DNA of 64,000 bases, from the sequence record PP047754. One strand, written 5' to 3'. Position numbers and translations under genes: made by a program. The stretch comes from Escherichia phage KEP4. The notes below the pieces were generated by a model, which was given only the letters and a program-made list of their open reading frames with translations, was not told the DNA's origin and searched no databases. Below are positions 25,153-63,497 of this stretch, piece by piece (position 1 is the first letter of the stretch; each line of letters begins with the position of its first letter).

Positions 25153-25191
25153 AGATACCCCACACTGGTCGTATGGGGTATTTAGGATGGA

Positions 25192-27989: not shown

Positions 27990-28034
27990 AATAGACCTCC
28001 TTTACAAGTCAGATCTATTTATTATAGACAAAAA

Positions 28035-32728: not shown

Positions 32729-33091
32729 TCCGGAGCCTCACCGAATTGATTAAATGTCTCCATTATTATATTGGAGATACGTTTATTGAATATAAACACA
32801 GGAATGGCCAATAAAATAATGACAGTGATTATTAATAGGTAAAAACTACTTTTCTACAACATCAAGAAACTGTATCTTAACGCGGTGCCCTTCGAGTTGT
32901 GAGTGTTAACGAACAACGAGAAGCAGCCTCCATGGCTGTGGAATGGGACTGCCTGTCAAGGCGGTGTTACGAGCGAGGGCGTCAGCCCCCTCGCGAGTAT
33001 ATTCGAATAAATTAAACGCGCGCGAGCGTTTTGATTCCCGTTGGCTAAATATCTTCAACACCATATTCAAACTCAGGTGATGGAGATTATC
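32729..33091. promoter_or_regulatory. divergent intergenic control region (early-type leftward, late-type rightward)
   Basis: 363-nt gap between divergent genes; TATAAT-like hexamer on the minus strand and the CTAAATATC late-promoter-like motif at 33045-33053. Confidence 0.35.
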
Positions 33092-34873
33092 ATGGCCACG
33101 CAAACAGTTCCTTCACTCGACGTCAGAGCATTTGAATACATTATTAAACAGCGAATGAAAGCTGATCCCACCTTTAAAGATTATGACTTTGAAGGTTCTG
33201 GTCTTAGTGCGATTATTCGTTTGTTGGCATCTGACGCGAACGCCATAGCCTTTATGCAAAACATGCTTAATGGTGAAGGCCATTTGAAGACAGCAAATCA
33301 ACGTTCAAACGTCGGTTTATCTGCTGCATTTCTTTCCTACACGCCTGACAACTATCGGGCAGCATACATGTATGTCAACATCAAAGTTACGCCTTATGAC
33401 GCCAGCACAGCCCCCAATGAGATCATCATGGATCGGCGCGTAATGTTCGTTGGGGCAAAAGACGGCAGTTCCTACAACTTTACTGTTGAGAAACCAGTGT
33501 CGGCAACGTTGACTGCAGACGGTTATTACATGTTCAACAATGTAAAGTTGATACAGGGGAATTGGTTGTACAAGACATATGATGTTGAAGGAAGCGCGAT
33601 TTCAACATATACGATTCCTTCTGGGAATGTCGATATCAATCATATGGTCGTGCAAGTACAAGAATCAGAGTCTTCCGACGTTTCGACGACATATCAACGT
33701 TACAACAGTCCATTTGATCTGAGCCAATATGCCTACCTGTATTTCGTAGAATTGGGTATTGATGGTCTGTATGTGTTTGAATTCGGAGATGGTTATCTTT
33801 CGCGTCGAGTAGAAGATGGGAACGTCATATTCCTTCAATACTTAGAAACTTCTGGTGCTGATGGGAATGATATCACAAGCCTGTCATCAGCGTCATCCAT
33901 AGGCGGGTTTAACCAGGTCGATGTAGAATTGGTTTCCGAACGTAGCGCAGGTGGAGACGATCCGGAATCTATTGAGGACACTAAACGGTTGGCTCCTTTA
34001 GCTTATCAGGCTGATGGTGCTGCGGTTACAGAAACAGATTATGGTGTATTGACTGAAAGGTTATTCTCCAACGTCTCCCGAGCTAAATCATATGGTGGTG
34101 ACACGCTGTCTCCTCCTGATTCTGGCTATGTTTACATCGCTGTTATACCTTCTGTTGGTGAGACACTTTCGGACGCTGAGAAGGCCGATATCGTTGCTGC
34201 TCTGGACAAGTATAATGTGGGATCTATTACCCCCAAAGTGGTAGACTCCGAGATCACATATATCCAAGTCTCAACGACTATATTTTGGGATCCGACTTCT
34301 ACAGTCTACGTTGAAGAACAGATGAAAGTTGTTGTTGGAAACAGTATCGTTAAATGGGGTGAAAATAATCTCGGCGGATTTGACCAATTGTTTGACAAAG
34401 AAATATTGCAGGAAGCAATTACAAAAATGGAGCGTTCTATTAACTCGAATATTACTTCGGTTGGTTATAAACGCCATTTCAAACCCGATTATGGAGTCTT
34501 AGACAGTTTTACATTCAGTTATGGAAGAAGTATCAAACCTGGTTCTGTGAAAATAACGGGGTTCAAACCGCTTCCTGCCGAGGTGGATTTCACTTACTAC
34601 ATGCGCGACAATAATGGCGATTTGAACATGTATAAAGTGAATAACAATGACACGACAAAAGAGTTTTTAGTTCAAAAAACAGGGGTTGTAGATTATGCAA
34701 ATGGGGTTGTAGACCTTCAACAGATCACAGTCTCCAACTATAACCCTGAAGGGGTGACCATAGTCGTGTTACCGGATGGACTGAACCAGAACATACAGGC
34801 TACACAAAACCAAGTATTCAAGATTGGTGATGTGGTTGTTACGCCAGAGGTGCGCTATGTCCAAAGATCTTAA
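33092..34873 (+). CDS. baseplate wedge protein, T4 gp6-like (baseplate J family)
   Basis: ORF 33041..34873; start placed at MATQTVPSL... (GGAG RBS). N-terminal ...KDYDFEGSGLSAIIRLLA... matches the gp6 DYDFEGS signature. Confidence 0.7.
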   Translation: MATQTVPSLDVRAFEYIIKQRMKADPTFKDYDFEGSGLSAIIRLLASDANAIAFMQNMLNGEGHLKTANQRSNVGLSAAFLSYTPDNYRAAYMYVNIKVTPYDASTAPNEIIMDRRVMFVGAKDGSSYNFTVEKPVSATLTADGYYMFNNVKLIQGNWLYKTYDVEGSAISTYTIPSGNVDINHMVVQVQESESSDVSTTYQRYNSPFDLSQYAYLYFVELGIDGLYVFEFGDGYLSRRVEDGNVIFLQYLETSGADGNDITSLSSASSIGGFNQVDVELVSERSAGGDDPESIEDTKRLAPLAYQADGAAVTETDYGVLTERLFSNVSRAKSYGGDTLSPPDSGYVYIAVIPSVGETLSDAEKADIVAALDKYNVGSITPKVVDSEITYIQVSTTIFWDPTSTVYVEEQMKVVVGNSIVKWGENNLGGFDQLFDKEILQEAITKMERSINSNITSVGYKRHFKPDYGVLDSFTFSYGRSIKPGSVKITGFKPLPAEVDFTYYMRDNNGDLNMYKVNNNDTTKEFLVQKTGVVDYANGVVDLQQITVSNYNPEGVTIVVLPDGLNQNIQATQNQVFKIGDVVVTPEVRYVQRS

Positions 34874-35711
34874 TAATGGACACAACGGGGTTAAGTATGA
34901 AACTCCGTTGTTCTACCAGAATGATTTCCCTCTGTTCATAGAATTTATGGACACGTTTTTCAATTGGCTGTATAGACAGCAGGGGTTCACTCAAGAAGAG
35001 ATCTTGGCATATCTGGCAGATACGTCTAGTTGGATGAATCCCGAGAGTGAAGATTCTCCGGTTAAACAGCTGATTGATTTAAAGGCTGACAAGACTCCAG
35101 GCTCAGAGGCCAAGGATTATTTGTCTGATAAATTCTTGGTTCGTACCTTTGAGAACATGATGGCTCTGGATGCCGAAGAACTTTTAGATGCCGACGGAAG
35201 GCCGCTATTGTCAATAGAAGATAAGAACAAACAGATAGATGACTGGTATAATGATTTTGGTTTCCAACGAACTGTTGATAAATCATTTCAGGAATTTGGT
35301 CATTTTATCCCAGTTGGTTCGGATTCTTTGCTGACGGCAACGGGAGACAGGTTCTCAGTTTACATTGAAGGAACGAAACGGAGAACGCTAGATCATCCAC
35401 GTTGGTTGAAACTGTTAAAACATATCTATAAAATCCGCGGAACCAAGAAAGCAATTGAATTGTTCTTTTGGATATATTTTGGTTGTCCAGTCAGTGTCTA
35501 TTTCCCAAAAGAGGAAATAGGCGGTCTGGATGGCAATTTTGAATGTGACGGTATGACAGGGATGCGTGATGACTATTATTATGATGAGTACACTTACGTG
35601 ATAAGAGTCCCAGGCGACGTATCTGATTTCGAAGGCGTATTTGAACGTGTCTTCCGTCAGCATTTCCATCCTGCTGGGTTTACTGTATTCCTAGAAAGTT
35701 CAAGGAGCTAA
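34857..35711 (+). CDS. putative baseplate-associated structural protein
   Basis: ORF 34824..35711; start placed at MSKDLNNG... (GAGGTG RBS), 17-nt overlap with gp6-like gene. Function from position only. Confidence 0.45.
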   Translation: MSKDLNNGHNGVKYETPLFYQNDFPLFIEFMDTFFNWLYRQQGFTQEEILAYLADTSSWMNPESEDSPVKQLIDLKADKTPGSEAKDYLSDKFLVRTFENMMALDAEELLDADGRPLLSIEDKNKQIDDWYNDFGFQRTVDKSFQEFGHFIPVGSDSLLTATGDRFSVYIEGTKRRTLDHPRWLKLLKHIYKIRGTKKAIELFFWIYFGCPVSVYFPKEEIGGLDGNFECDGMTGMRDDYYYDEYTYVIRVPGDVSDFEGVFERVFRQHFHPAGFTVFLESSRS

Positions 35712-35713
35712 AA

Positions 35714-36904
35714 ATGGCCGATTTCCTGAGTCAATATACAGGTCAGCAGATAGATCAGATATTGGGTTCTGTTGACGACAAAGTAAGTAAAAATGACGTT
35801 ATTAACGATTTTGAAGTTAACGACCCATTGTTTCCACCATCTGCTCGCCTGACATATGAGTTGAAAAGATCTGTTGACACAATCAATGATACTCTGGCCA
35901 ACAAAGTTATTCGTACAGATAGTGGTGAACAAACAATCAATGGCAAAAAGACTTTCAATGCGTTGTTGGTGACCAATGGGGGCATACAAGTCCCCGCCGG
36001 AAAATCCGTTTCAATCACAGATGAACCAACGAACTCGACAGATGGTGTTAACCTGAGCATGTTGAGAAAGCATGGCGTCAGTGAAGACACTACCCCGCCT
36101 GGTTCTGGTTTGGCTGGGGAGTTGTTGACATCCGGATATTACAAATTCAATTTGGATTTCACCAGATTGTCTGCGTATACCGGACCAACGTTGCCGACTT
36201 CAGTTCCTGTACAGACAGATTCTGGAGCGCGTTATTGGACAATGACTGCATTTTTTGATGCGTTGTTTGCAGACAACCGATTTAATGGATATGTGACAAC
36301 GACAGCGTATGACGCAGATATGCTGAGTCTAGAGTCTCAAATTAATAACATCAACACGTCGTTGAACGGGAAAGTCAACACCTCGACTTACAACACTAAG
36401 ATGGCGTCGTTGGATTTGAGTATCTCCAATATCAACACGTCTCTGGGTAATAAAGTCGAGGTCAGCACATATAATACGAAGATGACTTCCTTGGACGGCA
36501 GTATCAGTTCTCTCACGACTGGTAAGGTCGATGTATCAACGTATAATGCCAAAATGACCACAATTGATAACAGTTTAGGGAACGCAGTTTATCGCACAAA
36601 AACAAACTTGTCGTCATACACGGTTTCGGCTTCGGGAACGACGGCTCTTCCAGATTTTGATTTGGTGAACCTTTGTCAAATACTGGTAACTGCGCAATGG
36701 GGGACAGGTAACGTTGTTGACACATATCGAGTAACCATAACTCGTGACGGAACGATCAAATCAGAGTTGTTGGTTCAGAAAAGTACGAGTGGTACAGTGA
36801 CGTTCACAGGGTCTGTGGTGGGCGGTAAATTGAGAATTTCCGTTGTTAATGCGAATACAACAACTGCTTGTTCTGTCGATTATTCTATTGCAGCTTCTTT
36901 CTAA
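35714..36904 (+). CDS. tail fibre-like protein with tandem ~20-aa repeats
   Basis: 396-aa ORF; central repeats (NTSLNGKVNTSTYNTKMASLD / NTSLGNKVEVSTYNTKMTSLD / TGKVDVSTYNAKMTTID) typical of fibrous trimeric proteins. Confidence 0.55.
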   Translation: MADFLSQYTGQQIDQILGSVDDKVSKNDVINDFEVNDPLFPPSARLTYELKRSVDTINDTLANKVIRTDSGEQTINGKKTFNALLVTNGGIQVPAGKSVSITDEPTNSTDGVNLSMLRKHGVSEDTTPPGSGLAGELLTSGYYKFNLDFTRLSAYTGPTLPTSVPVQTDSGARYWTMTAFFDALFADNRFNGYVTTTAYDADMLSLESQINNINTSLNGKVNTSTYNTKMASLDLSISNINTSLGNKVEVSTYNTKMTSLDGSISSLTTGKVDVSTYNAKMTTIDNSLGNAVYRTKTNLSSYTVSASGTTALPDFDLVNLCQILVTAQWGTGNVVDTYRVTITRDGTIKSELLVQKSTSGTVTFTGSVVGGKLRISVVNANTTTACSVDYSIAASF

Positions 36905-36950
36905 AACTAAATACCCCTAGATGACATGAATACATTTAGGGGTATTACAA

Positions 36951-39900
36951 ATGGCCAACAAACCAACACAGCCTCTTTTCCCTTTGGGTTTAGAAACTTC
37001 TGAGTCTTCGAACATAAAAGGCTTCAACAACTCCGGCACTATTGAGCATTCCCCTGGTGCCGTAATGACATTTCCTGAAGATACTGAAGTTACAGGTCTT
37101 CCATCTTCTGTGCGTTACAATCCTGATAGTGATGAATTTGAAGGTTATTACGAAAACGGTGGTTGGTTGTCTTTGGGTGGCGGCGGAATACGCTGGGAAA
37201 CGCTCCCTTACGCTCCCTCTAGCAATTTGTTAGAAGGTCGCGGCTATCTCATTAATAATACGACAGGGACTTCTACAGTGGTTCTCCCTTCCCCTACGCG
37301 CGTTGGTGATTCAGTTACAATTTGTGATGCCTATGGGAAATTCGCGACGTATCCATTGACTGTATCTCCAGCGGGAAATAACCTGTACGGCTCCACCGAA
37401 GATATGACGATATCCACCGATAACGTGTCGGCGACTTTCACTTGGTCTGGTGCCGAGCAGGGTTGGGTTGTTACATCTGGTGTTGGCCTCGGCCAAGGTC
37501 GTGTGTACAGTCGTGAGATTTTCACTCAAATTTTAGCATCTGAAACAAGTGCTGTCACTCTCAATACTCCACCAACAATCGTGGACGTGTATGCTGACGG
37601 AAAACGTCTTGCGGAATCCAAATATTCACTAGATGGGAATGTAATCACTTTCGACCCTTCTTTACCTGCCAGCACTGAATTGCAGGTAATAGAATATACT
37701 CCGATTCAGTTGGGCACTGGCGGCGGGGGTTCGGGCGCTTCTGCAATCACCTGGATTTACAATGGCGGATCCGCTATTGGTGGCGAAACCGAAATAACGC
37801 TAGATATCGTTGTAGATGATGTTCCGGCTATTGATATAAACGGGTCTCGTCAGTACAAAAATCTTGGATTCACGTTCGACCCATTGACGAGTAAAATCAC
37901 TCTGACGCAAGAACTGGAACCAGAAGATGAAGTTGTTGTGGTTATAAATGGGACACCAAACATTTATAACCAAATCGATCGTTCTTTACAGGAAGTTGCT
38001 CGCGCCTACAATTTTACAAATGCTCAAGTTATTTTGAGCAACGATTATACTTCTGTTCTGGATAATAAAGTCGTTATTTATGATACGACATCCCAACGTT
38101 CTTGGGGGATTCCATCTGGAATCCCAGCAGGTTCTACAGTGGTTTCCGTCAATGGGGATCAACTGAAGTACAAAAATGGATCAACTGAAACCACTGTTAC
38201 ATTGGTGAGTGTACCAGGTAGTGCAGAGAAATTGAAGAACGATCTGGCTTCAAACTCTGGTTCAGGTATGTTGAAAACTTCTAGAGGTGATACCGTAGAA
38301 GAAGAATTGACTTTCATTAATCAGAATATGGTCGTTCAAATTTCAGATTTCGCGAGTCTTAGAACTTTAGTGCCAGCCACAGCGGGTATCCGAGTCAAAT
38401 TGAAAGGTTATTATTCTGGTTCTGAAATCGGTGGCGGAGAATTCATTTCTGTCGCTGGAGATGCTGTTGATGATGCTGGGATGATTGCTCGAGTGTCAAG
38501 CAGCTTCTATTGGAAGAGAATTATCGACAAACACATTACTCCTGGCATGTATGGCATCAAAGGGAATCTTCCAGAAGATCCGGCAGTGAAACTGAACGCT
38601 ATGTTTACGGCTGCGGCTGCGGCTAACGCTTATGTCTTACTGAACGATGTCGACACTCTGGTCTGTAAAAGCCCTGTCGTGATTCCAGCACATTCATTAG
38701 TGTACGGCAACAAACGAACTATACTGAAACGTGATGCATCGTTGTCATATGCTAATGATTTCTTGACAATTATGAATGATTCATATGTCAAGGGGATCTA
38801 TGTTGATGGTAGCCGTTTAGATTCTCAGACTCCTCTAGAAGCAGTTTTGGTGCGTATCGCTGGGAATGTAACTATCCATAAGAGTGAGATCCGAAACAAT
38901 GCTGGCTATGGCGTTGTTGGTAACGCAGTCCCTGGTATTCGTATCACCAAGAACATTTTTTCCAACTTCGCCAAAGGTTGTGTAGCCATGTTTGGCGACG
39001 GAACAGCGACGAGTGATGATCTGCAAATTAATGATAACAGATTCTTTAACCTGGGCGCGGGAACCATTTATGTTGGCGGTTACTCAAACTTCCTTGTCGA
39101 CAAAAACGTCGGAAGAGGCACTTACGTGGGTTCTCCAGGAAACCGTCTGTATGTTGTGACCAATACTAACGGGACTATCACCCAAAGCGCTGGGCCAGAT
39201 TTTGGGCCATTGAAAACGGGTATGTTCTTTGTATTGCCTGGTGGTTCTGAACATATGATAACGGCGGTCAACAGCCTTACCAGTGTGACAGTAACCCCAC
39301 CACCGCCGTCGAACGCCACAGTTCGTGCAATCGCAGGGACAGGGGATCTTCTGGGCATCCAATCATGCTCCTACGGCACCATCAGCCGTAACAACCTGAC
39401 CGATTGCGTGACTTACGGAACTGGTGGAGGCACGATGGAGGGGAGCACTCTGGGTTGCAATTATGTCACTTGGGAAGACAACTTCATCCGCAACACAGGT
39501 AAGAACGGAATCAACGTCGGGCAATCAGGCGCTGGGGTTGCCACGTGTTCTATCCTGAGGAACACTCTGATACAGGTTGGTAACGGCGGTCAGGGTGTTG
39601 GCCCAGCGTATCTTCTGCCTTGGTTCGATACGCTAGGTATCGCTCTGTATCAGGGAAACCCAGGTTATATGGCGAATATGGACGTCAGTGATAACAACGT
39701 CTCTACATGGTCTGGCGATCTGAATGACGGCGCTGCTTGGTTTGGTATGAGCGGTTGTACGGAAGCCACTGTGACTTGTACAGGCAACAAATCTTCTGGT
39801 TATTCCGACGGCTATGTTCGTGGAGATATATTAGAAGTCACGTTGACAGGTTATGGTACAGGGGCGGCTGCGACTTCATTCGTTAGTGATGGTGAGTCTA

Positions 39901-40124
39901 TACAGATAACCGTTCAAACAGGTACTTCACCAACAGCTTCACCTTATTTTTCAGTGCGGAAGGCGATCCGCACCCGCCATCAACCGATGATAACGGCGCA
40001 GATCGTCACCACAACTGGGAACATGTCTCATTGTTGGGGTATGCAATCTAGTACAGCAGGAAACTGGATGGTGGGTCAGAATACAACTCCTTCGGGGCTT
40101 ACGACATATTACGCAAAAGGGTAA
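36951..40124 (+). CDS. tailspike protein 1 (right-handed parallel beta-helix)
   Basis: 1057-aa ORF; PbH1-type repeats (NNAGYGVVGNAVPGIRITKNIFSNF ... INDNRFFNLGAGTIYVGG); N-terminal module homologous to that of 42756..45536. Confidence 0.7.
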   Translation: MANKPTQPLFPLGLETSESSNIKGFNNSGTIEHSPGAVMTFPEDTEVTGLPSSVRYNPDSDEFEGYYENGGWLSLGGGGIRWETLPYAPSSNLLEGRGYLINNTTGTSTVVLPSPTRVGDSVTICDAYGKFATYPLTVSPAGNNLYGSTEDMTISTDNVSATFTWSGAEQGWVVTSGVGLGQGRVYSREIFTQILASETSAVTLNTPPTIVDVYADGKRLAESKYSLDGNVITFDPSLPASTELQVIEYTPIQLGTGGGGSGASAITWIYNGGSAIGGETEITLDIVVDDVPAIDINGSRQYKNLGFTFDPLTSKITLTQELEPEDEVVVVINGTPNIYNQIDRSLQEVARAYNFTNAQVILSNDYTSVLDNKVVIYDTTSQRSWGIPSGIPAGSTVVSVNGDQLKYKNGSTETTVTLVSVPGSAEKLKNDLASNSGSGMLKTSRGDTVEEELTFINQNMVVQISDFASLRTLVPATAGIRVKLKGYYSGSEIGGGEFISVAGDAVDDAGMIARVSSSFYWKRIIDKHITPGMYGIKGNLPEDPAVKLNAMFTAAAAANAYVLLNDVDTLVCKSPVVIPAHSLVYGNKRTILKRDASLSYANDFLTIMNDSYVKGIYVDGSRLDSQTPLEAVLVRIAGNVTIHKSEIRNNAGYGVVGNAVPGIRITKNIFSNFAKGCVAMFGDGTATSDDLQINDNRFFNLGAGTIYVGGYSNFLVDKNVGRGTYVGSPGNRLYVVTNTNGTITQSAGPDFGPLKTGMFFVLPGGSEHMITAVNSLTSVTVTPPPPSNATVRAIAGTGDLLGIQSCSYGTISRNNLTDCVTYGTGGGTMEGSTLGCNYVTWEDNFIRNTGKNGINVGQSGAGVATCSILRNTLIQVGNGGQGVGPAYLLPWFDTLGIALYQGNPGYMANMDVSDNNVSTWSGDLNDGAAWFGMSGCTEATVTCTGNKSSGYSDGYVRGDILEVTLTGYGTGAAATSFVSDGESIQITVQTGTSPTASPYFSVRKAIRTRHQPMITAQIVTTTGNMSHCWGMQSSTAGNWMVGQNTTPSGLTTYYAKG

Positions 40125-40174
40125 TATTGAATGCCTAAATACCCCATATTGGTCATCCTTTATGGGGTATTATC

Positions 40175-42715: not shown

Positions 42716-42755
42716 ATTGAATTGAGCCTAAATACCCCATATTGGCAAATCCTTT

Positions 42756-45536
42756 ATGGGGTATTTTCAAATGACCAGAAATGTAGAAGAATTATTCGGC
42801 GGCGTAATCACAGCTCCCCACCAGATTCCTTTCACTTATAAATCAAGTGTCGGTGGAGAAACTTTCTTTTCTCTACCTTTCTATCCTGTCACTGGCGTAG
42901 TCACAATTAACGGCGGCATGCAAGTTCCGTTAGACAACTTCGAGATAGACGGGAATACGTTGAATCTCGGGCGCGCATTGTCCAAAGGCGATGTTGTGTA
43001 TTGCTTATTCGATAAAATTCTTTCACCAGAAGACACTGCCAAAGGCATCCGCATATACAAATTTCAAGCCGTGGGTGGAGAAACTGAATTCACGCCTGAC
43101 TTTACTTCTTATGGTGTACAGTCTCTTTATATCGGTGGCGAATACAAAACTCCTGATATAGAATATTCCTATAACAGCACGACAGGGAAAGTGTCTTTGC
43201 AAACTGCATTGACTGCAGGCGTTTGGGTAGTCGCTGAAATGTCTGTTAAACAACCGAATATCAGTCCGGCGTTTGATCGCAGTATTCAAGAAATTGCCCG
43301 TTCTGCTAATGTGAAAGACTCTGAAGTCATCGTTAGTACGGACACCATATCTTTATTGGATGGGAAGAAAGTTGTTTATGACGTAGCGGCGCAAACCAGT
43401 TATGGCTTACCAACCATTCCTGATGGTTCTGTCATTTCTTCTGTTAGTAATGGGCAACTTACTTATAATCCAGGTAATGTTGTAGTGGATTTGTTACCTT
43501 TAGAAGATTCATTTATTAATGTGATAAACACTCTGGGGCGCAATGATGGTGCCAAGTATATCGGAGAATGCCATTCTGTTGCTGATCTCAGGAATACTGA
43601 ACCCACTATGGATGGACAACGCATTATTCTTAAGCAACACACTGCGGGTACTCTTCTTGGTGGAGGGGTATTCCGTGCGTTAATTGATGGTACAGGAAAG
43701 ACTGATGATAACGGCACTGTGATCAAAACTGTTGGCGGCGCAGCCTGGTTACGTGTTAATGCTGATAGAGTTAACCCATTCATGTTTGGTGCTTTGGGCG
43801 GTTCTAATGATGATACTATTCCAGTACAATCTTGTGTGGACAGTGGTAAGGCCACACAATTAACTGGTGTACATTACGTTAGCAATATCCGGTTAAAATA
43901 TAATACGTCGTCTATTTATGGGTCTGGATTACATTACTCCAGGTTGCATCAGTTGCCTTCTGCTACTGGGAATTGTATTACCATAAAAGATACATGCTCC
44001 CTTATTGTATTAGACTCCTTTGGGGTATATGGCACAGGTGCACAACAAGGCACATCATTTACTGCGGGTACAACAGGTATCTATATAGAAACTCCTTCAG
44101 GTCTCTCAGCCGATTATCCGTTCCACACTACCGCAGACCCAAGACGCGACTTGTGTATTTCTAAGGTCCATATAGCAGGTTTTGATGAATATGGGTTAAA
44201 TATTGATAGTGGTAACTTTAGTGTTACTACAGATTCTCTTTTAGTCAACCACATCAATCAGGTGGGCGTCCGTTGTGCTACTACTGATTGGACTTGGACA
44301 AATATTCAGGTTAATACCTGCGGTAAACAATGTCTGGTTCTTGATGGTTGTGGTAATGGTCGTATTATTGGTGGTAAATTCATTTGGGCTAACTGGCAAC
44401 CTTATGGTACAGTAGGACAGTTCCCAGGCATTACTATTAATAATAGCCAGAATATGGTTATTAATGGTATTGAGGTACAAGATTGTGGCGGGAATGGCAT
44501 TGAGATTAGCGATTCATATTCAATTTCCATGAACGGATTGAACACCAATCGTAACGGCATCAACGCTAACAACACTTTCTACAACATCGTATTTAACAAA
44601 AGTGATGCAGTTATCAACGGATTCGTAGGACTCAATTATGCTGCGAATAGTGGTTCAGGTGCTAACTCTAGTGCAGGCAATTTTCAGTTCCTGTCTAATG
44701 ATTGCAGCGTCACCATTAATGGTGTGGTTGAGACTGGTTATATGGGCATTAACTTTATTGGTGATAACAATATTATCAACCCCACAAATTCCGAACTGAG
44801 CATTAACGGATTGGTTAATTATTCCAAGACTGGTTTGCAAACCATGAACGAGACCCCTACATTTGATGGTGTTAGCACTACACCTGTTTATGTAAGTGTC
44901 CCATCTTCTGTAGGGCAAGTAAATGGTCTGAGACTATCACAAGCCAACAAAGATAAATTACTGTACTCAAGAACAGCAGGTCCAGAAGGTATTACCATGG
45001 CTGCTGTTGTAGTACCTACCATATCTGGAGCTGAAGTATTTAACTTCATGGCCATTGGTTCAGGGTTTAGTGATACATCCAACAGTCTTCATCTTCAATT
45101 AGTTATAGACGCTTCTGGAAAACAAACAATTGCTTTGCTATTGGGGGGCGATGGTACAACCCAAATTTTATCTGGGGATTTACCTAACGACCTTAAACTA
45201 CAAAGTGGTGTGCCATATCATATAGCTATTGGTGCTAAACCTGGATATTTCTGGTGGAGTATTCTTAATATTCAGACGGGTAAGAGAATCAGACGGTCAT
45301 TCCGAGGCGCTTATTTAGCTGTACCATTTAATTCTATATTCGGATTAACTTCTTCATTAACATTCTTCTCGGATAGCAATGCTGGTGGGGATGCCTGTTC
45401 TGGTGTAGGTGCTAAAGTGTATGTTGGTATGTTCTCTTCTGAGAATGATTATGTAGCTTCACGGTACTACAACCTGATTAATCCTGTAGACCCTAATAAG
45501 TTAATTAGTTACCGTATATTGGATTCTTCTATTTAA
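42756..45536 (+). CDS. tailspike protein 3 (parallel beta-helix)
   Basis: 926-aa ORF; shares the FDRSIQEIARSANVKDSEVIVSTD...VVYD... module with tailspike 1; Asn/Gly-rich beta-helix repeats. Confidence 0.7.
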   Translation: MGYFQMTRNVEELFGGVITAPHQIPFTYKSSVGGETFFSLPFYPVTGVVTINGGMQVPLDNFEIDGNTLNLGRALSKGDVVYCLFDKILSPEDTAKGIRIYKFQAVGGETEFTPDFTSYGVQSLYIGGEYKTPDIEYSYNSTTGKVSLQTALTAGVWVVAEMSVKQPNISPAFDRSIQEIARSANVKDSEVIVSTDTISLLDGKKVVYDVAAQTSYGLPTIPDGSVISSVSNGQLTYNPGNVVVDLLPLEDSFINVINTLGRNDGAKYIGECHSVADLRNTEPTMDGQRIILKQHTAGTLLGGGVFRALIDGTGKTDDNGTVIKTVGGAAWLRVNADRVNPFMFGALGGSNDDTIPVQSCVDSGKATQLTGVHYVSNIRLKYNTSSIYGSGLHYSRLHQLPSATGNCITIKDTCSLIVLDSFGVYGTGAQQGTSFTAGTTGIYIETPSGLSADYPFHTTADPRRDLCISKVHIAGFDEYGLNIDSGNFSVTTDSLLVNHINQVGVRCATTDWTWTNIQVNTCGKQCLVLDGCGNGRIIGGKFIWANWQPYGTVGQFPGITINNSQNMVINGIEVQDCGGNGIEISDSYSISMNGLNTNRNGINANNTFYNIVFNKSDAVINGFVGLNYAANSGSGANSSAGNFQFLSNDCSVTINGVVETGYMGINFIGDNNIINPTNSELSINGLVNYSKTGLQTMNETPTFDGVSTTPVYVSVPSSVGQVNGLRLSQANKDKLLYSRTAGPEGITMAAVVVPTISGAEVFNFMAIGSGFSDTSNSLHLQLVIDASGKQTIALLLGGDGTTQILSGDLPNDLKLQSGVPYHIAIGAKPGYFWWSILNIQTGKRIRRSFRGAYLAVPFNSIFGLTSSLTFFSDSNAGGDACSGVGAKVYVGMFSSENDYVASRYYNLINPVDPNKLISYRILDSSI

Positions 45537-45590
45537 AAATATACCCCTCTTCGGAGGGTATTTACTAGAGAAAAACAGGAGATTCTTATT

Positions 45591-47825: not shown

Positions 47826-47831
47826 AATACA

Positions 47832-47858
47832 AGCCCCCAATAAGGGGGCTTTCTTTTG
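47832..47858 (+). terminator. rho-independent terminator
   Basis: AGCCCCC-AATAA-GGGGGCT hairpin followed by TTCTTTTG, just after the tailspike 4 stop. Confidence 0.7.
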
Positions 47859-47955
47859 CTATGTCTCGTTAACCTGACAGGAACTGGAAGTTCAAAACTA
47901 TCTATTGGCTGTATACTAAATATCTCTATAAAATGGCACTCGATGGAGCATCAAA

Positions 47956-52794: not shown

Positions 52795-52846
52795 ATAGTG
52801 TTGAAAGGTGGGCGTAAAGCCCACCAAACCAATAGAGGATAAAGAT

Positions 52847-53095
52847 ATGCGTGGAATGAAAGTACAGGGGCACGCATCCATGTTGAGAAGCAGTTCTTGT
52901 CCAGGCGCGATCATTTGTACTGATCATGCTGCAGGTATGGCTGCATTGCAAGCCCGTCAACGCAACGAAACCCGTGAAGCCACCATTGTTGAACAATCAA
53001 ACCAGATATCGAATCTGGAGGCGACGATCAAAATGATGGCCGAAAAGTTGGGGATAGAAATCCCCGAAGGAGGTCAGAATGGCGACGCAAGCTGA
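52847..53095 (+). CDS. hypothetical small protein
   Basis: ORF 52808..53095 trimmed to MRGMKVQG... with GAGGA RBS. Confidence 0.4.
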   Translation: MRGMKVQGHASMLRSSSCPGAIICTDHAAGMAALQARQRNETREATIVEQSNQISNLEATIKMMAEKLGIEIPEGGQNGDAS

Positions 53096-53420
53096 AAGAT
53101 CTGGGCTTGATATCCGTGGTATCTTGACTGCTGTCGTGGCTTCTGCATTGGTCTCGGCGGCGTCGTTCCTTTGGTTTATGGGTGGGATGGAAACACGCGT
53201 GAATGTATTGGAGCGAGATTCTAATAAAATGGATCAGGTCCTTCAAAAGGTGAATGACATGAGTGAGCGCATGGCGATCATGAATACAGACCTCGCATAT
53301 GTCAAACAAAATATGGCTGAGTTAAAACTCAATAGCAGCAGCCTATCAGACGATGTCCGCACATTGCGGATTACTGTATCTGATTTGCAGCAACGAGGGA
53401 ATAACAATGGCCGTCAATAA
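53079..53420 (+). CDS. membrane-anchored coiled-coil protein
   Basis: 113-aa ORF with GGAGG RBS; one transmembrane helix (ILTAVVASALVSAASFLWF) then heptad-like sequence. Confidence 0.5.
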   Translation: MATQAERSGLDIRGILTAVVASALVSAASFLWFMGGMETRVNVLERDSNKMDQVLQKVNDMSERMAIMNTDLAYVKQNMAELKLNSSSLSDDVRTLRITVSDLQQRGNNNGRQ

Positions 53421-54159
53421 AATTCGCGACAAGAAATCTTTTATGAACTATGTCTTGCGTAAATTGGGCGCTCCGGTCATCCAAATTAACCTTGACAGTT
53501 CACAAGTAGAAGATGCTGTTGATGATGCTCTACAGAAGTTTTGGGAATATCATCGCGACGGTAGCCAAGATGCGTTCTTCCTGTACCAAGTTAAGCAAGA
53601 AGATATCGACAAGGGTTATATTGAATTCCCAGAAGATATTGACGATGTGATTGAAGTTATCCCTGGACCTCCTATTGAGTCAATTGGAAACTGGGCAACT
53701 CCTCAATGGCAAATGGCCCAAGCCATGCTTGTACCAAAAGCGGCGCTTGTGTCTATTCGTCTCATTGATTACGTTTCCATGCAACAGCGCCTGTCTGATA
53801 TCACAAGCGTCTTGAATGTTCGTCGTAATTTTGTGTACAAGAAGTTCCAGCGACGCCTTTACCCGCAATTTGCTGCCACCATTGATGAAACTCTGGCTTT
53901 CCGTTGTTATCAGAATATCGACCCCGAATCGGAAGAAAACGCTGAAGCATGGAATGACATGTGGTTGAAAGCGTATGCGACTGCATTGGTTAAGCGCCGT
54001 TGGGCAGAGGTGCTTAAGAAGGCAAGAGGCATCCGTCTCCCAGGTGGTATCGAACTGGATGGTGATAGTATGTTCAGTGAGGCCGAGACCGAGATAGAGC
54101 GGTTGGAGGAAGAATTGCGTACTGGTCAGCAATACCCTATCGATTTTATGATGGGATAA
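53407..54159 (+). CDS. neck protein, T4 gp13-like
   Basis: ORF 53353..54159; start placed at MAVNKIRDKK... (GAGGGA RBS). N-terminal YVLRKLGAPVIQINLD resembles the gp13 ...LRRLGAPIINVEL... region as I recall it; T4 13-14-15-16-17-18-19-20 order. Confidence 0.55.
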   Translation: MAVNKIRDKKSFMNYVLRKLGAPVIQINLDSSQVEDAVDDALQKFWEYHRDGSQDAFFLYQVKQEDIDKGYIEFPEDIDDVIEVIPGPPIESIGNWATPQWQMAQAMLVPKAALVSIRLIDYVSMQQRLSDITSVLNVRRNFVYKKFQRRLYPQFAATIDETLAFRCYQNIDPESEENAEAWNDMWLKAYATALVKRRWAEVLKKARGIRLPGGIELDGDSMFSEAETEIERLEEELRTGQQYPIDFMMG

Positions 54160-54163
54160 GAGA

Positions 54164-54181
54164 AGGCGGGATAACCCGCCT
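54164..54181 (+). terminator. bidirectional hairpin terminator
   Basis: AGGCGGG-ATAA-CCCGCCT followed by TTCTTTTTA; also directly downstream of the antisense gene 54188..54400. Confidence 0.6.
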
Positions 54182-54187
54182 TTCTTT

Positions 54188-54400
54188 TTATAACTTGATG
54201 TCGCGTTCGGAAGGATTTGAATTTGCTAGAATATAACCATCAACCACGTTCTTTTCATCCCACCATTCAATAAAATCATTCCCATCTTTGCCTTTAATAA
54301 GACCCACAATGTTATAAGAATTATTTGCGACTTTAGCGTCCACACAGATAATTCTCACACGCCTTCCGTCACGAGTTTCTTTAATATCTTCAACCTTCAT
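54188..54400 (-). CDS. hypothetical small protein encoded antisense within the structural module
   Basis: 70-aa minus-strand ORF in an otherwise plus-strand late operon, flanked by the bidirectional terminator. Confidence 0.4.
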   Translation of the reverse strand: MKVEDIKETRDGRRVRIICVDAKVANNSYNIVGLIKGKDGNDFIEWWDEKNVVDGYILANSNPSERDIKL

Positions 54401-54461
54401 TTATCAATTCCTCAAAAGAATTAATGATTGACTAAATACCTTCAAAATTGAGGGTAAAGTC

Positions 54462-55103
54462 ATGGCTACTTCAAAATATTTCAACTATACAGCACACCAA
54501 GGTACTCAGAAATTAATTGACGACTTGGTGGTCGAGATGATACAACTACGTGGGATTGACGTCAAGTATATTCCACGTTCCATCGTTGAAAAATACCCAA
54601 TTTTAAACGAGGCTGAACATAAATTCGACCAGGCGTTCGATATCGAAGTATACATGCAAGATTACCAAGGCTTTAACACCCAAATGTGGGAGAAGTTTGG
54701 CGGTATTCAATTACAAGATGAAGTGACGTTCACCATTGCTCGTCGCCGTTTTTCGGAAGTGATTGGTAATGGGCCAGGACTTGAGCAGATGCCTCAAGAA
54801 GGTGATTTGATATACCTCCCAATGGCGAACAAGATATTCAAAGTGAATAACCCGAATAACGACGAAGAATTTATGCAATTCGGTAAATGGTACACATATT
54901 CCTTACCGTGCACGTTGTTCCAATATGGTAATGAAGATTTTGATACTGGTGTATCTGAAATTGACGACATCGATAAACGTTTACAAGATCTAGACGGCGA
55001 TGGTGTCTATAAAGATGCCAGTCTACAGACAGATAACCAATTTGCGGACGAAATAGAGAAAGATCTTTCGCCCAATAAAATGAAGATAGACTTCGGGGAA
55101 TAA
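54462..55103 (+). CDS. putative neck protein (gp14 position)
   Basis: 213-aa ORF with CTAAATACC motif 22 nt upstream; assignment by synteny only. Confidence 0.45.
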   Translation: MATSKYFNYTAHQGTQKLIDDLVVEMIQLRGIDVKYIPRSIVEKYPILNEAEHKFDQAFDIEVYMQDYQGFNTQMWEKFGGIQLQDEVTFTIARRRFSEVIGNGPGLEQMPQEGDLIYLPMANKIFKVNNPNNDEEFMQFGKWYTYSLPCTLFQYGNEDFDTGVSEIDDIDKRLQDLDGDGVYKDASLQTDNQFADEIEKDLSPNKMKIDFGE

Positions 55104-55105
55104 TC

Positions 55106-55804
55106 ATGGCCAGACCATTTGAAAAATATTTCTACCATGAATCGTTGTTGAAATACATTCATGTCTTCAACGCTATCATGTCAGATTTAAAAGTCAAAAC
55201 CGAACGTGGCTTGATGGAAATCCCGCTGCATATGGCTATTGGCCGTCGCAATGACCTCAACAGGAACGTGCCAGCCAATATGCTGCCATTTGCGACTATG
55301 TCCTTCGGTCAATTCGAAATTAATAAACAAGTGACCAAGTCGTATCATAATCAGATATCGACTGCAACTGCGCGGTCCAAACAACGAATTCCGATCATTA
55401 TAGATTTTGAATATAACATCAGAACGAAGAAACTGGTCGAAATGCTACAGGTGTTGGAACAAATTTATTCTGTGTTCACTCCTTCTATTGATTGTCAGAT
55501 AAAAGACAACGATACGTTATCTCAAGATCAAAACGTGAAGATTATGTTGACATCCCATACCATTTCCGATAACTGGGAAGGGGATGCCGCTGAATCACCC
55601 CATATAGATTGCACCTTTAATTTTCAATTACATGGGCACATTTATGGCGAAGATTATTGGGTCGATGACGGCTCTGGCGGTGGTGATCCGAACGTTATCA
55701 AAGAGATAATTATTGAAATGTCTAATGATTTGAACACGCCATGGTCGGAACTGCCTGAGTGGTTCCGAGTTGACAAAGATGGCATACATCATCCGGAGGA
55801 TTGA
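55106..55804 (+). CDS. tail completion / sheath stabiliser protein, T4 gp15-like
   Basis: 232-aa ORF immediately upstream of the terminase genes; N-terminal pattern resembles gp15 as recalled; synteny. Confidence 0.5.
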   Translation: MARPFEKYFYHESLLKYIHVFNAIMSDLKVKTERGLMEIPLHMAIGRRNDLNRNVPANMLPFATMSFGQFEINKQVTKSYHNQISTATARSKQRIPIIIDFEYNIRTKKLVEMLQVLEQIYSVFTPSIDCQIKDNDTLSQDQNVKIMLTSHTISDNWEGDAAESPHIDCTFNFQLHGHIYGEDYWVDDGSGGGDPNVIKEIIIEMSNDLNTPWSELPEWFRVDKDGIHHPED

Positions 55805-56487
55805 TCATGAGCAATATGTCAGAAAGGTTACTTGCGACGCTAGACGCGGTGACTGCCAGAGATGAAGTTGGTAAGGAGGCGATGGAAGCCGTCTCTCCAC
55901 GTCCAGGTATTGACTTCGATGAAAAAACGGGCGAGTGGTTTGGTGAACGCCCAGAAGGTTATCAGCCGATTCCAGAACCTCCATCATTGGAAGATATCGC
56001 GTCCAAAGAATCCAAGGTTCCGGAGTTTGCGGATACTGATGCCACAACAGATTACAAGCGGATACGCGACACAACATATGCCATGCAAGAAGCCACGATG
56101 TTCATGATGGGGCAAGCTGCTAAATTAGCTGCATCTACCGAAGCCCCAAGAGCGTTTTCCGTGTTTCGTGAATTGGGCGAACTCATGCGCGGCCTGAACA
56201 AAGACCTGATGGAAAACCAAAAAACCATCAAAGCTGTGACAGGGGATAAAGAACCGCCGACTGATGACACAACCGTGGATGTTACCACTTCACCCGACGG
56301 GACCACAACAGTATCTGTTGGGAAGAAAGCGAGATCTTCGCGCGATTTATTGAAAACGATCGAAGATGCACGCCGCCGCGCTGAAGAACGCGCCCAGGCA
56401 AAAGCCACCCAACAAACCGAAGATGAAATTATCGACGGAGAAACGGTTGACGTGAAGGAAGAAGACGATGGCGTATCAGAAGCGTGA
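55801..56487 (+). CDS. terminase small subunit (gp16-like)
   Basis: 228-aa ORF overlapping the TerL start by 20 nt; central region resembles T4 gp16 as recalled; acidic C-terminus. Confidence 0.6.
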   Translation: MIMSNMSERLLATLDAVTARDEVGKEAMEAVSPRPGIDFDEKTGEWFGERPEGYQPIPEPPSLEDIASKESKVPEFADTDATTDYKRIRDTTYAMQEATMFMMGQAAKLAASTEAPRAFSVFRELGELMRGLNKDLMENQKTIKAVTGDKEPPTDDTTVDVTTSPDGTTTVSVGKKARSSRDLLKTIEDARRRAEERAQAKATQQTEDEIIDGETVDVKEEDDGVSEA

Positions 56488-58678
56488 TATAGAATATGCT
56501 CCGATAAAAACGGGGTTTAAAATCGACGACGTGAAATTGCGTATGGACCAGACGTTCATGCGCAAGCCTTCTGTGCGCGCTCCACGAGTCGAGTTGATGC
56601 TAACAGATGAACAAGAAGACGAATTTGTTGAATGTTCAATGGACGCGCATTACTTCGCTGCCAATTACTATAAGATAACGACAATCGATAAAGGCTTTAT
56701 CCTTTTCGATATGCATGATTATCAGAAACAATTATTTCACGATTTTCAAGATTATCGTTTCAATGCCGTTGTCCAGGCGCGTCAGTCCGGTAAATGCGTC
56801 CGTGGTGATACTCTTGTTTATGTCTATGATACAGTCAGTCAACAAGAGTTGCATCTCACCATAGAAGAGCTTCACAAGCGCTTCGAAGGACCGAACCATG
56901 CTGTGCCACTGAATACCATTGGCAACCACAATAAGTTTGTAGACAGCCGTTTCGGGAAACGATATTTTGTTGAGTCCGACACTGGCTGGGTTCCGGTTAT
57001 TGCCGCTCATAAAACGAAAGAATACGCTGAATACGTGGTCAGGACTGAAACCGGACGCACAATTCATGTCGCAGATGAGCACATGTTCTTCAATGAATAT
57101 GGGCGCGAAGTATTTGCTAAAGACATGGAGGCCGGAGATGCCATAATGACCCAGGAGGGAATAGAATTCATCTCTGAGATCTGGGAGACTGGTGAGTACC
57201 ACCACATGTATGACTTGCAAGTCAAGTCCAGCGATCAACGTTATTACACGAATGGGTTCCTCAGCCATAATACCACGGTCGTGGCTGCGTTTCTTCTTTG
57301 GTATGCGATGTTCCACTCAGACAAAGAAATCGCGGTACTGGCAAACAAAGAGAAACAAGCGATTGAAATTCTTGACCGTATCAGGAAGGCGTATCAGGAC
57401 CTCCCATTCTTCCTTCAGCAGGGTTGTGAGAAGTTTGGTTCTACACTGATAGAGTTTGAGAACGGCTCTAAGATATATGCTTATGCAACGTCTTCGGACT
57501 CTATTCGTGGTCGTTCTGTATCTCTCTTGTACGTGGACGAAGTCGCATTCATCGAAAATGACTTTGAATTTTGGGAATCAACATTCCCAGCGATCGCATC
57601 TGCTGATACTTCACGTTGTATTCTGACCAGTACTCCGAAAGGCCAGCGAGGGTTGTTCTATGATATCGTCACCAAAGCAGACCCGCGCCATCCGCAATAC
57701 AACGACTTCCATCTTACCGAAGTCCCTTGGTACAAGGTTCCGGCGTACACCAAAGACCCTGATTGGGAAACCAAACAACGCGCTCGTCTGGGGGATGCCC
57801 GTTTTGACCAGGAATTTGGAATCAAGTTCCGTGGTTCTGTAGGTTCATTGATACCAGCCAAATGCTTGGATAAAATGACATCCAAGTTATATCGAGAGCC
57901 TAATGAATTCACCAAAATTTACAAGGAATATGACCCGCAACGCATCTACTTCGGGATTGCAGATACGGGGAAAGGTGTTGAAGGAGATTATTCGGTTCTG
58001 ACAATTCTGGATATAACGGAATACCCGCATGTCATAGCGGCCAAGTACAGGAACAATACAATACCTCCGATGATGTATGCATACACGATAGCCGATATGT
58101 GTACTGAATACGGGGAATGCCCTGTCCTTGTAGAAACCAACAACGACGTTGGTGGACAGGTTATTACGATCTTGTATCAAGAAATTGAGTATCCAGAGAT
58201 CATATTCACGTCGACGGATAACAAAGGGACAGGGAAACGGATTGGTGGTCGTAAACCAGAGCCAGGCATTAACACCAACAGGAAAGTGCGATCTATTGGT
58301 TGTGCTAACCTGAAAGCGCTTATTGAGAAAGAAATGTTGGTGATTGAAGATCAAGACACGATAGATGAACTCAGCACATTCGTGTTCCGTGGTGCGCGTT
58401 ATGAAGCAGATGATGGATGTCACGACGACTGCGTTATGCCGTTGGTATTATATTCTTGGGCAGTTAAACAAGAATGGTTCAGTGATCTGACTTCTACCAG
58501 TATTTCTCAAGACATGAGAAATAGAATGTCTTCGACTGAGTCACAACAAGTATTCCCGTTTGGTGGTTTAGTCGTGGGAGACACTCCATCTGGAACTGAG
58601 CATCTCCCTGGGTTCGGTGGTGTTCAAGTCTTCGACGAACGTTCAGGGATGACCATGGATGAGTGGTTTAAGAATTGA
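56468..58678 (+). CDS. terminase large subunit (T4 gp17-like), interrupted by a mini-intein
   Basis: 736-aa ORF. Extein matches gp17 across the ATPase (...VVQARQSGK / TTVVAAFLLWYAMF...GSKIYAYATSSDSIRGRSVSLLYVDEVAFIEN); about 159 extra residues sit between the Lys and Thr of the Walker A GK[TS]. Confidence 0.9.
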   Translation: MAYQKRDIEYAPIKTGFKIDDVKLRMDQTFMRKPSVRAPRVELMLTDEQEDEFVECSMDAHYFAANYYKITTIDKGFILFDMHDYQKQLFHDFQDYRFNAVVQARQSGKCVRGDTLVYVYDTVSQQELHLTIEELHKRFEGPNHAVPLNTIGNHNKFVDSRFGKRYFVESDTGWVPVIAAHKTKEYAEYVVRTETGRTIHVADEHMFFNEYGREVFAKDMEAGDAIMTQEGIEFISEIWETGEYHHMYDLQVKSSDQRYYTNGFLSHNTTVVAAFLLWYAMFHSDKEIAVLANKEKQAIEILDRIRKAYQDLPFFLQQGCEKFGSTLIEFENGSKIYAYATSSDSIRGRSVSLLYVDEVAFIENDFEFWESTFPAIASADTSRCILTSTPKGQRGLFYDIVTKADPRHPQYNDFHLTEVPWYKVPAYTKDPDWETKQRARLGDARFDQEFGIKFRGSVGSLIPAKCLDKMTSKLYREPNEFTKIYKEYDPQRIYFGIADTGKGVEGDYSVLTILDITEYPHVIAAKYRNNTIPPMMYAYTIADMCTEYGECPVLVETNNDVGGQVITILYQEIEYPEIIFTSTDNKGTGKRIGGRKPEPGINTNRKVRSIGCANLKALIEKEMLVIEDQDTIDELSTFVFRGARYEADDGCHDDCVMPLVLYSWAVKQEWFSDLTSTSISQDMRNRMSSTESQQVFPFGGLVVGDTPSGTEHLPGFGGVQVFDERSGMTMDEWFKN
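56795..57271 (+). mobile_element. mini-intein (Hint domain, no endonuclease domain) inside TerL
   Basis: In-frame 477-nt insert starting with Cys (CVRGDTLVYVYD...) and ending ...HHMYDLQVKSSDQRYYTNGFLSHN followed by Thr; block F/G-like ends and a TxxH-like block B (RTIHVADEH). Confidence 0.8.
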
Positions 58679-58730
58679 TCACTAAATATCTTTCAAATTG
58701 AGCGAAACTCTACCGAGAAGGAATGATATT

Positions 58731-61706: not shown

Positions 61707-61773
61707 TGTCCTCGGTGCTGGGGGAATGTTATTCCCCCTCACTAATTACAAGAAAATGTTGAGGACTTAGATC

Positions 61774-63456: not shown

Positions 63457-63497
63457 AGTTCAACTAAATATAGAAAATTAATTCGGAGATCAAAATC

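Follow-up and report, generated by a model that had tools for sequence, protein, structure and literature searches.

CTAAATA boxes as likely late promoters in a segment of Escherichia phage KEP4, and predicted hairpins that join some of them to the ribosome-binding site

Known late promoters and the phage KEP4 segment

Late genes of phage T4 are read from a single -10-type box, TATAAATA, that has no -35 element and depends on gp55, gp33 and gp45. We analysed a related box, CTAAATA, in a 64,000-nucleotide stretch of Escherichia phage KEP4 (sequence record PP047754; this whole stretch is called the window below), where it is likely to be a T4-type late promoter and where, at a subset of sites, it also forms part of a predicted hairpin over the ribosome-binding site (RBS) of the gene downstream. 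The same seven letters, including the C at -12, make up the predicted late promoter of Aeromonas phage Aeh1, in which the box runs from -12 and the unusual C was ascribed to a diverged gp55 (Nolan et al. 2006, PMC1524935); Aeh1 is a T4-like phage of another family, and the promoters of both phages are predictions. For the Ackermannviridae, the family to which the window belongs, CTAAATAcCcc has been listed as a regulatory motif together with TTCAAT[N14]TATAAT, in a paper that gives the motif string and its coordinates and no reference for it (PMC7283392). The CBA120 paper (2011) noted homologues of gp55, gp33 and gp45 and described the late promoter of ViI-like phages as not yet identified (PMC3184105), the AG3 paper (2011) searched with TATAAATA, allowing one mismatch (PMC3121705), and the LIMEstone paper (2012) reported 33 late promoters, its main text giving no sequence. 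The late-promoter reading of CTAAATA is already in the literature for this family and so is not new, and rediscovery of the motif adds little. The string CTAAATAcCcc reportedly goes back to the 2012 'Viunalikevirus' genus paper in Arch Virol.

A second group of precedents concerns translation. Long early transcripts of T4 gene e (lysozyme) fold so that the Shine-Dalgarno sequence (SD) and the AUG are sequestered, and late promoters within the 5′ strand of this structure give RNAs that are translated; late promoters inside an RBS-sequestering hairpin are likewise described for T4 I-TevI, I-TevII, I-TevIII and segB and for mobE of Aeh1 (PMC3014915, PMC2988022). The arrangement predicted here would resemble the gene e and I-TevI design in that the SD is paired by a hairpin whose 5′ strand or loop contains the late promoter, and in Salmonella phage Vi01 the endolysin gene has the layout of gene e itself (TTTAAATACCTCTGC...GCGGAGGTATTT), with a gene e-like layout at the RuvC-like resolvase gene too. 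We take this resolvase to match T4 gene 49. In contrast to gene e and I-TevI, the arrangement is frequent here (about a third of motif sites), occurs on core structural genes (gp6, gp14 and the tailspikes) in co-directional late clusters, and has a stem base regularly made of the promoter AATA and a TATT located after the SD. A systematic coupling of promoter and RBS hairpin would carry the classic T4 mechanism over to a further phage family, a modest extension.

The window is a Kuttervirus segment (Vi01-like, Ackermannviridae) with 97-99% identity to Kuttervirus genomes: positions 54000-60000 are ~97% identical to Escherichia phage Sa157lw and 96.9% identical to Vi01, and positions 8001-33000 are 98.6-99.6% identical to phages LPEK22, BPS6 and GG32. 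Comparison with the annotation of Vi01 and GG32 places rIIA/rIIB, DNA polymerase, small early genes and tRNAs in the left part (roughly 1-32 kb and largely on the minus strand), and gp6, four tailspikes, a 1612-aa DUF4815 protein, neck proteins, terminase, sheath, tube and portal in the right part (33-64 kb, plus strand). As a genome-wide reference we used the full Vi01 genome, with 208 annotated genes and 7.8% non-coding DNA. The neck-to-capsid and gp6-to-tailspike regions were compared with Erwinia phage Bue1 (gp14 56% identical) and two metagenomic relatives (gp14 54% and 61% identical), and the further phages compared were Salmonella pSal-SNUABM-02, Klebsiella 0507-KN2-1 (Taipeivirus), Dickeya phiD3 (Limestonevirus) and Shigella AG3 (Agtrevirus); some relatives are cited below by our own handles (L022 and the like).

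Distribution and promoter-like character of CTAAATA

The nonamer CTAAATAYC has eight exact matches on the two strands of the window, against 0.82 expected and a maximum of three in 100 dinucleotide shuffles, none of which reached eight. All eight copies are intergenic and stand 19-40 nt 5′ of a start codon on the same strand. The first-pass annotation of this DNA had placed seven of them on the plus strand, 19-41 nt before structural-gene starts; this agrees with measured spacings of 21-40 nt, or 19 nt to an in-frame ATG of tailspike TSP2, and six of its positions stand as given, while that at 42729 is corrected to 42728. It saw no copy in the minus-strand early region, which is wrong by one site: an exact match lies there at 25177-25185, before orf149.

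The form CTAAATATC is found before the baseplate wedge gene gp6 (33045..33053; ATG 33092, 38 nt), the gene for the 1612-aa DUF4815 virion protein (47916..47924; ATG 47956, 31 nt) and the tail sheath gene (58682..58690; ATG 58731, 40 nt), all on the plus strand. The form CTAAATACC precedes the neck protein gene gp14 (54432..54440, plus strand; ATG 54462, 21 nt) and, followed by CC, the plus-strand tailspike genes TSP4 (36907..36915; ATG 36951, 35 nt), TSP3 (40135..40143; ATG 40175, 31 nt) and TSP2 (42728..42736; ATG 42771, 34 nt, the in-frame ATG at 42756 lying within a hairpin 3′ arm), as well as orf149 on the minus strand (box 25177..25185, 24 nt from the start; gene 24703..25152, a Vi01_183 homologue). 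The extended string CTAAATACCCC is exact at 36907, 40135, 42728 and 25177 (minus strand), and the other four nonamers have different tails. Co-oriented upstream genes stop 3-12 nt before the boxes, and a terminator scan flagged nothing in between. An extended element had also been proposed as common to the gp14 and sheath copies; the similarity is real, but its alignment needs indels (CTAAATA-y-CTT(T)CAAA(A)TTGAG). Part of it comes from the gp14 hairpin and part from a common initiation region, yyTTCAA, which recurs at gp6 and at the capsid gene of other genera.

The shorter CTAAATA occurs 13 times in the window and is not equally common inside coding DNA: ten copies have a co-oriented start no more than 45 nt downstream, one comes after a tRNA gene, and two are in coding sequence (one sense, one antisense). 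An unbiased scan around 77 mechanically called open reading frame (ORF) starts ranked it first among 7-mers (11 genes against 0.66 expected, p = 1.4e-10), with ATACCCC and GGGGTAT also among the top-listed 7-mers. Across Vi01, 16 of the 23 copies of CTAAATA are in non-coding DNA and 18 stand 21-42 nt before a co-oriented start; for the core TAAATA, 29 of 58 copies fall in the zone 15-50 nt upstream of starts, which by calculation holds only ~2.7% of strand positions. Structural genes predominate behind the Vi01 motif sites (gp6, TSP2-4, the 1612-aa protein, gp14, sheath, gp22, gp48, gp54, gp26, gp5 and gp2), joined by those for the endolysin, the RuvC-like resolvase and a uvsW-like helicase and by several annotated as 'phage associated'.

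No -35 element accompanies the box, the information being at most 0.3 bit at each position from -57 to -13 in 16 Vi01 CTAAATA sites. Pooling 49 sites from four genera, numbered after the T4 and Aeh1 spacing with the start 6 nt past the last A, gave A at -13, C at -12 (35/49, 71%), TAAATA at -11 to -6 (a core made invariant by the site selection), pyrimidines at -5 to -2, and A at the predicted +1 and +2 (63% each). This A-A information peak falls exactly at the expected start, as a fixed-start promoter predicts. The likeness to the T4 late promoter thus extends over the single -10-type box, the lack of a -35, the late genes served, the TAAATA core and the presence of gp55, gp33 and gp45 homologues, whereas -12 is C here and not A, and -13 is not T. 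Exact TATAAATA is rare, with one copy in the window (14103-14110, minus strand) and four in Vi01 (26-34 nt before a start), all five of them before genes. The pyrimidine- or GC-rich stretch at -5 to -2 is also unlike the sequence downstream of the late box in T4. The published CTAAATAcCcc is the same sequence in the same phage family, with four exact CTAAATACCCC copies in the window, and both published motifs are enriched here; the consensus obtained here, (A)C-TAAATA-yyyy-n-AA, is however broader, and the 'cCcc' tail belongs to the subset with hairpins rather than to all sites.

The position of CTAAATA is kept before orthologous late genes in five other Ackermannviridae genera, with diverged flanks. 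In the relatives compared, CTAAATA, often as CACTAAATA, stands 22-42 nt upstream of the genes for DUF4815, gp14, sheath, gp19, portal, scaffold, major capsid protein (MCP), gp6, tailspikes and the homologues of orf149 and orf152. Among the window's own sites, the box is kept at gp6 and TSP4 in Klebsiella 0507-KN2-1, phiD3 and AG3, at orf149 in 0507-KN2-1 and phiD3, at the 1612-aa gene in L021, L022, L024-L028 and AG3, and at the sheath gene in L022 and L024-L028. The variant box ACTAATTA is found on the plus strand before gp19 (tail tube; 61134..61141, ATG 61173) and before the portal gene (61741..61748, ATG 61774), and this CTAATTA corresponds to CTAAATA in Erwinia-type relatives: the orthologous positions in Bue1 and L028 carry CTAAATA at gp19 and CACTAAATA at the portal gene.

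A search for gp55, gp33 and gp45 homologues, as the first-pass annotation had suggested, found all three in Vi01, at loci outside the window. The gp55 homologue is Vi01_103c (phrog_234, 'late sigma transcription factor', E = 1e-53), the gp33 homologue Vi01_069c (Pfam PF16805, 'phage late-transcription coactivator', 68.5 bits) and the gp45 homologue Vi01_135c (phrog_223, E = 5e-65). By analogy with T4, we infer that host core RNA polymerase carrying a gp55-like phage sigma, aided by gp33 and the gp45 clamp, would read CTAAATA (extended A-C-TAAATA-yyyy-n-A-A) as the -10-type element of Kuttervirus late promoters with no -35, and would start RNA about 6 nt past the last A of the box. Such boxes would drive the genes for gp6, the tailspikes, the 1612-aa protein, neck, sheath and other virion proteins.

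The second published motif, TTCAAT-N14-TATAAT with at most one mismatch, has eight matches in the window against 0.7 expected, all at 2.6-32.8 kb and seven of them on the minus strand (2614, 10868, 13862, 18478, 27198, 29578 and 32765; the plus-strand match is at 22433). These sites are probably early, sigma-70-type promoters, and taken together with CTAAATA they partition the window in the way expected of early and late promoter classes. The confinement of this separate motif to the early region also speaks against taking the CTAAATA boxes for weak sigma-70 -10 elements used by unmodified host RNA polymerase, with no phage sigma involved. TAAATA does match TATAAT at four of six positions, and weak sigma-70-like sites turn up in numbers in a host-type scan of the region, one of them overlapping 47905-47934; but the sigma-70-like matches number 37 against 41.9 expected from shuffles, there is no conserved -35 or TG extension, the C at -12 fits the Aeh1 late promoter rather than a sigma-70 site, and gp55 and gp33 homologues are conserved in the family. 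We therefore regard a sigma-70 origin of the boxes as very unlikely.

The proposal that the box is a variant of the T4-type late promoter is supported by its enrichment, its position, the lack of a -35, its conservation and the three Vi01 homologues, and we hold it with good confidence. Several points weigh on the other side. Sequence searches of Pfam and PDB gave no match for the gp55 homologue of Vi01, its homology resting on the PHROG profile, and the gp55, gp33 and gp45 genes lie outside the window, as judged from the gene order common with Vi01, the one genome in which they were checked. No box is present at TSP1, gp13, gp15 or gp17, and gp19 and portal have only the variant CTAATTA. Our literature search found no transcript-end mapping or transcriptomic study for any Ackermannviridae phage and no in vitro transcription or expression timing for the group, so that the sigma factor and the start site are assigned by analogy.

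Predicted hairpins over the Shine-Dalgarno sequence

A predicted hairpin whose 3′ arm covers the SD takes its 5′ arm from the end of the box and the next 5-12 nt at six of the eight exact copies (gp6, TSP2, TSP3, TSP4, gp14 and orf149) and, in Vi01, at roughly one in three of such promoters. Folding energies were scored as z against dinucleotide shuffles, and for each leader we compared the predicted probability that the SD is unpaired in read-through RNA with that in RNA from the predicted +1. The leaders of TSP4, TSP3, TSP2 and orf149 follow one plan, in which CTAAATACCCC(A/T)... and a loop lead to ...GGGGTATT immediately 5′ of the ATG, with the SD GGGG 5-9 nt before the ATG. The TSP4 hairpin has 14 bp (AATACCCCTAGATG / CATTTAGGGGTATT, 36910..36946; -19.1 kcal/mol, z = -6.7) and covers this GGGG, the SD being unpaired with a probability of 0.02 in read-through RNA and 0.47 in the shorter RNA. 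The corresponding hairpins cover the SD at TSP3 (AATACCCCATA / TATGGGGTATT, 40138..40171; -19.6 kcal/mol, z = -5.9; 0.00 versus 0.46), at TSP2 (AAATACCCCATA / TATGGGGTATTT, 42730..42766; -18.8 kcal/mol, z = -6.0; 0.03 versus 0.41) and, on the minus strand, at orf149 (ATACCCCATAC / GTGTGGGGTAT, 25155..25181; -18.0 kcal/mol, z = -4.8; 0.10 versus 0.57). The gp6 hairpin (ATCTTCA-CACC / GGTG-TGGAGAT, 33051..33087) covers a GGAG SD with -11.6 kcal/mol (z = -2.7; 0.12 versus 0.54), and the 8-bp gp14 hairpin (TACCTTCA / TGAGGGTA, 54437..54456) covers a GAGGG SD with -9.2 kcal/mol (z = -3.9).

Two further minus-strand sites with other boxes have the same design. The exact TATAAATA copy at 14103..14110, before a 55-aa gene (ATG 14074), is the 5′ arm of a hairpin at 14078-14106 (-14.4 kcal/mol, z = -5.6; 0.00 versus 0.61), and ATAAATA at 28016..28022 (core variant AATAAATA ending at 28016), before a 77-aa gene (ATG 27989), is the 5′ arm of one at 27990-28019 (-8.6 kcal/mol, z = -2.6). 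Overall, the SD is predicted to be unpaired with a probability of 0.00-0.22 in read-through RNA, and a start at the predicted +1 raises this to 0.38-0.61. Given the +1 predicted from T4 and Aeh1, the anti-SD bases lie at -5 to about +6, so RNA begun at the predicted late start would lack the 5′ arm. Read-through transcripts would hold both arms and hide the RBS, and transcripts from the late promoter would be translatable; this effect on translation is a prediction. The coupling of promoter and hairpin is what our analysis adds, and as a new instance of the known T4 mechanism we give it an even chance.

The association extends to the whole Vi01 genome, where strong sequestration of the SD (probability unpaired <0.15) is predicted for 9 of the 29 genes that carry the motif and for 8 of the 178 that do not (Fisher odds ratio 9.6, p = 7e-5), and all nine are predicted to be open in the short RNA. 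Pairing is also specific to each site: the mean duplex energy of a site's own 5′ and 3′ arms is -6.8 kcal/mol, against -3.9 kcal/mol when arms are swapped among sites (permutation p < 0.0005). This duplex test mis-scored tight hairpins, and both it and the Vi01 sequestration test mis-scored RuvC and gp5, whose annotated starts sit in the 3′ arm. In 16 hairpins, the stem base always pairs the promoter (A)ATA with a TAT(T) located 3′ of the SD, and positions +1 to +11 vary by site (CG, TA, AT, GC, TG) and are still paired; arm pairs include CCTTCA/TGAGGG, CCTCTGC/GCGGAGG, CCCATAAC/GTTATGGG, TCCTCAC/GTGAGGA and CCCCCAA/TTGGGGG. The gp14 stem is altered on both arms between genera (TACCTTCA/TGAGGGTA in Kuttervirus versus AAATACCCCCA/TGGGGGTATTT in L022), and in the Klebsiella gp6 orthologue the pairing is kept by a one-sided change, T.G to C-G. 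At gp14 of Bue1 and L028, the whole anti-SD arm precedes the box, which puts the promoter in the loop, the same logic in a different geometry. A C-run opposite a G-rich ribosome site does not by itself account for these predicted pairings.

The variety of the arms bears on a reading of the inverted repeats as operators, at which a dimeric DNA-binding regulator would overlap the late promoters. There is a precedent in T4 I-TevI, which represses itself by binding an operator that overlaps its own late promoter (PMC2988022), and the arms ATACCCCATA...TATGGGGTAT are identical at TSP2, TSP3 and orf149 and across genera. As a candidate the operator was rejected: the arm spacing ranges over 4-13 nt, and the arms differ (CCTTCA, CCTCTGC, CCCATAAC, TCCTCAC and others) yet are self-complementary. 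Varied arms with pairing kept point to a nucleic-acid structure rather than to one protein with one sequence, and we give operators hardly any probability.

Another explanation dispenses with the promoter altogether and takes the element to act in RNA, as an intercistronic hairpin that terminates upstream transcription or stabilises upstream 3′ ends, with CTAAATA kept as its stem base. Six of the eight copies do lie at the base of a stable hairpin right after the stop codon of a co-oriented upstream gene, and a U-rich tail follows some hairpins of relatives (Vi01_142, the endolysin gene, RuvC, L022 gp14). The box is, however, kept just as well at sites that lack a hairpin (in the window, the 1612-aa gene, sheath and the 56-aa gene; in other genera, gp22, MCP, portal and gp19), it is in the loop and not the stem at Bue1 and L028 gp14, and A is enriched at the fixed +1/+2 distance from it. 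A purely RNA-borne role is thus improbable. The window hairpins were also considered as terminators and rejected, the terminator scan having flagged none of them, with loops >8 nt or weak T-tails; true terminators are present at 47831-47851, before the box of the 1612-aa gene, and at 45545-45558.

The coupling of late promoter and SD-covering hairpin has its own difficulties. Four motif genes of the window lack a hairpin: the 1612-aa gene and the sheath gene, whose leaders show no significant structure (-3.0 kcal/mol, z = -0.25, and -6.0 kcal/mol, z = -0.7), the 56-aa gene and orf152. A few hairpins in relatives resemble intrinsic terminators with U-rich tails. Homologues of orf152 (Vi01_184-like) in Klebsiella, Dickeya and Shigella phages (L029, L030, L031) have CTAAATACCCCATA with no complementary GGGGTAT arm, their SD being GAGGA; the C-run may therefore also matter to the polymerase itself, and the anti-SD reading leaves such boxes unexplained. 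RNA read through into the tailspike, gp6 and gp14 copies would, moreover, mostly be late itself, which leaves gating there with no evident purpose. In IMG/VR, a matching 3′ arm accompanies the 14-mer CTAAATACCCCATA in 14 of 123 occurrences among the matches listed. Those of the 14 that could be traced are on contigs of about 150-160 kb, as long as Ackermannviridae genomes, and the other occurrences are without the arm and mostly on far shorter contigs. The IMG/VR relatives found with orf149 are all at least 95% identical, too close for covariation.

The T4 gating logic would apply most naturally at the minus-strand sites 28016, 25177 and 14103, which are co-oriented with early genes and downstream of early-type promoters. 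Within the late cluster the hairpins could serve cassette insulation, control of stoichiometry or stabilisation of upstream 3′ ends. In a further model, to which we assign slightly less than an even chance, about a third of Ackermannviridae late promoters would lie in the 5′ arm of an RBS-hiding hairpin, which is also terminator-like in some relatives. Each gene concerned (tailspikes, gp6, gp14, endolysin, resolvase) would be a self-contained, insulated cassette with no translation except from its own late start. If true, this would explain the published 'cCcc' tail as an anti-SD sequence, and tailspike cassettes could move between phages with correct expression kept. Kuttervirus and its relatives are widely developed for biocontrol and diagnostics, and their tailspike genes are swapped for re-targeting, so the exact late promoter, and the possibility that tailspikes are translatable only from their own promoter, bear on the design of engineered cassettes.

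The ~40-nt promoter-hairpin blocks between tailspike genes might additionally act as homology linkers for the exchange of tailspike cassettes among phages. The TSP2 and TSP3 leaders (42728-42766 and 40135-40171) are near-identical over ~40 nt, and the same block stands before unrelated tail-fibre or tailspike genes in Klebsiella, Dickeya and Shigella phages and in the metagenomic relatives L022 and L028. The same block, however, also precedes orf149, which is not a tailspike gene, and the conserved N-terminal anchor domains of the tailspikes could give the homology; we consider such a role rather unlikely, and since it is compatible with promoter function it does not compete with the late-promoter reading.

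Other sites, leaders and neighboring features

Two further CTAAATA copies stand before genes without a hairpin: one at 63464..63470 (plus strand), before the 56-aa gene at 63498, where Bue1 and L028 have CTAAATA and L024, L025 and L027 have CTAAGTA, and one at 24700..24706 (minus strand), before orf152 (24209..24667, a Vi01_184 homologue). Immediately behind the tRNA-Met gene lies the copy at 29613-29619, and an early-type TTCAAT...TATGAT site comes next. Some relatives carry CTAAGTA at further sites. In the distant relative L023 (ENA ERZ17987050 NODE_3, 155 kb; gp14 42% identical), CTAAGTA(C) stands before portal, scaffold, MCP, gp14 and sheath, twice with CCCC after it, and is probably this lineage's own late-promoter variant.

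Some mechanically called or annotated starts fall within a hairpin 3′ arm (ATG in ...TTATGGGG...), and an in-frame ATG a few codons downstream has the better SD spacing. The cases are 42756 versus 42771 in the window (TSP2) and, in Vi01, 45650 (RuvC-like) and 48036 (gp5); the annotated starts of these two Vi01 genes are probably 4-5 codons too early.

TSP1 (ATG 45591), which has no late box, is preceded at 45537-45590 by a terminator-like hairpin, ATACCCCTC-TTCG-GAGGGTAT, and then a free AGGAG. In AG3, phiD3 and Klebsiella 0507-KN2-1, one tailspike or fibre gene likewise has the leader AAACAGGAGATTC..ATG, there sometimes with CTAAATA or TAAGTA upstream.

An Rfam search of the whole window returned three tRNAs only and no known RNA family at the hairpins; the tRNA cluster lies at 28374-29695 on the minus strand and consists of Ser-GCT, Asn-GTT and Met-CAT genes. 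Between the sheath and tail tube genes, a 152-aa ORF at 60684-61142 (plus strand) matches the GIY-YIG homing endonuclease annotated there in Vi01, and relatives have another insert, or none, in this interval.

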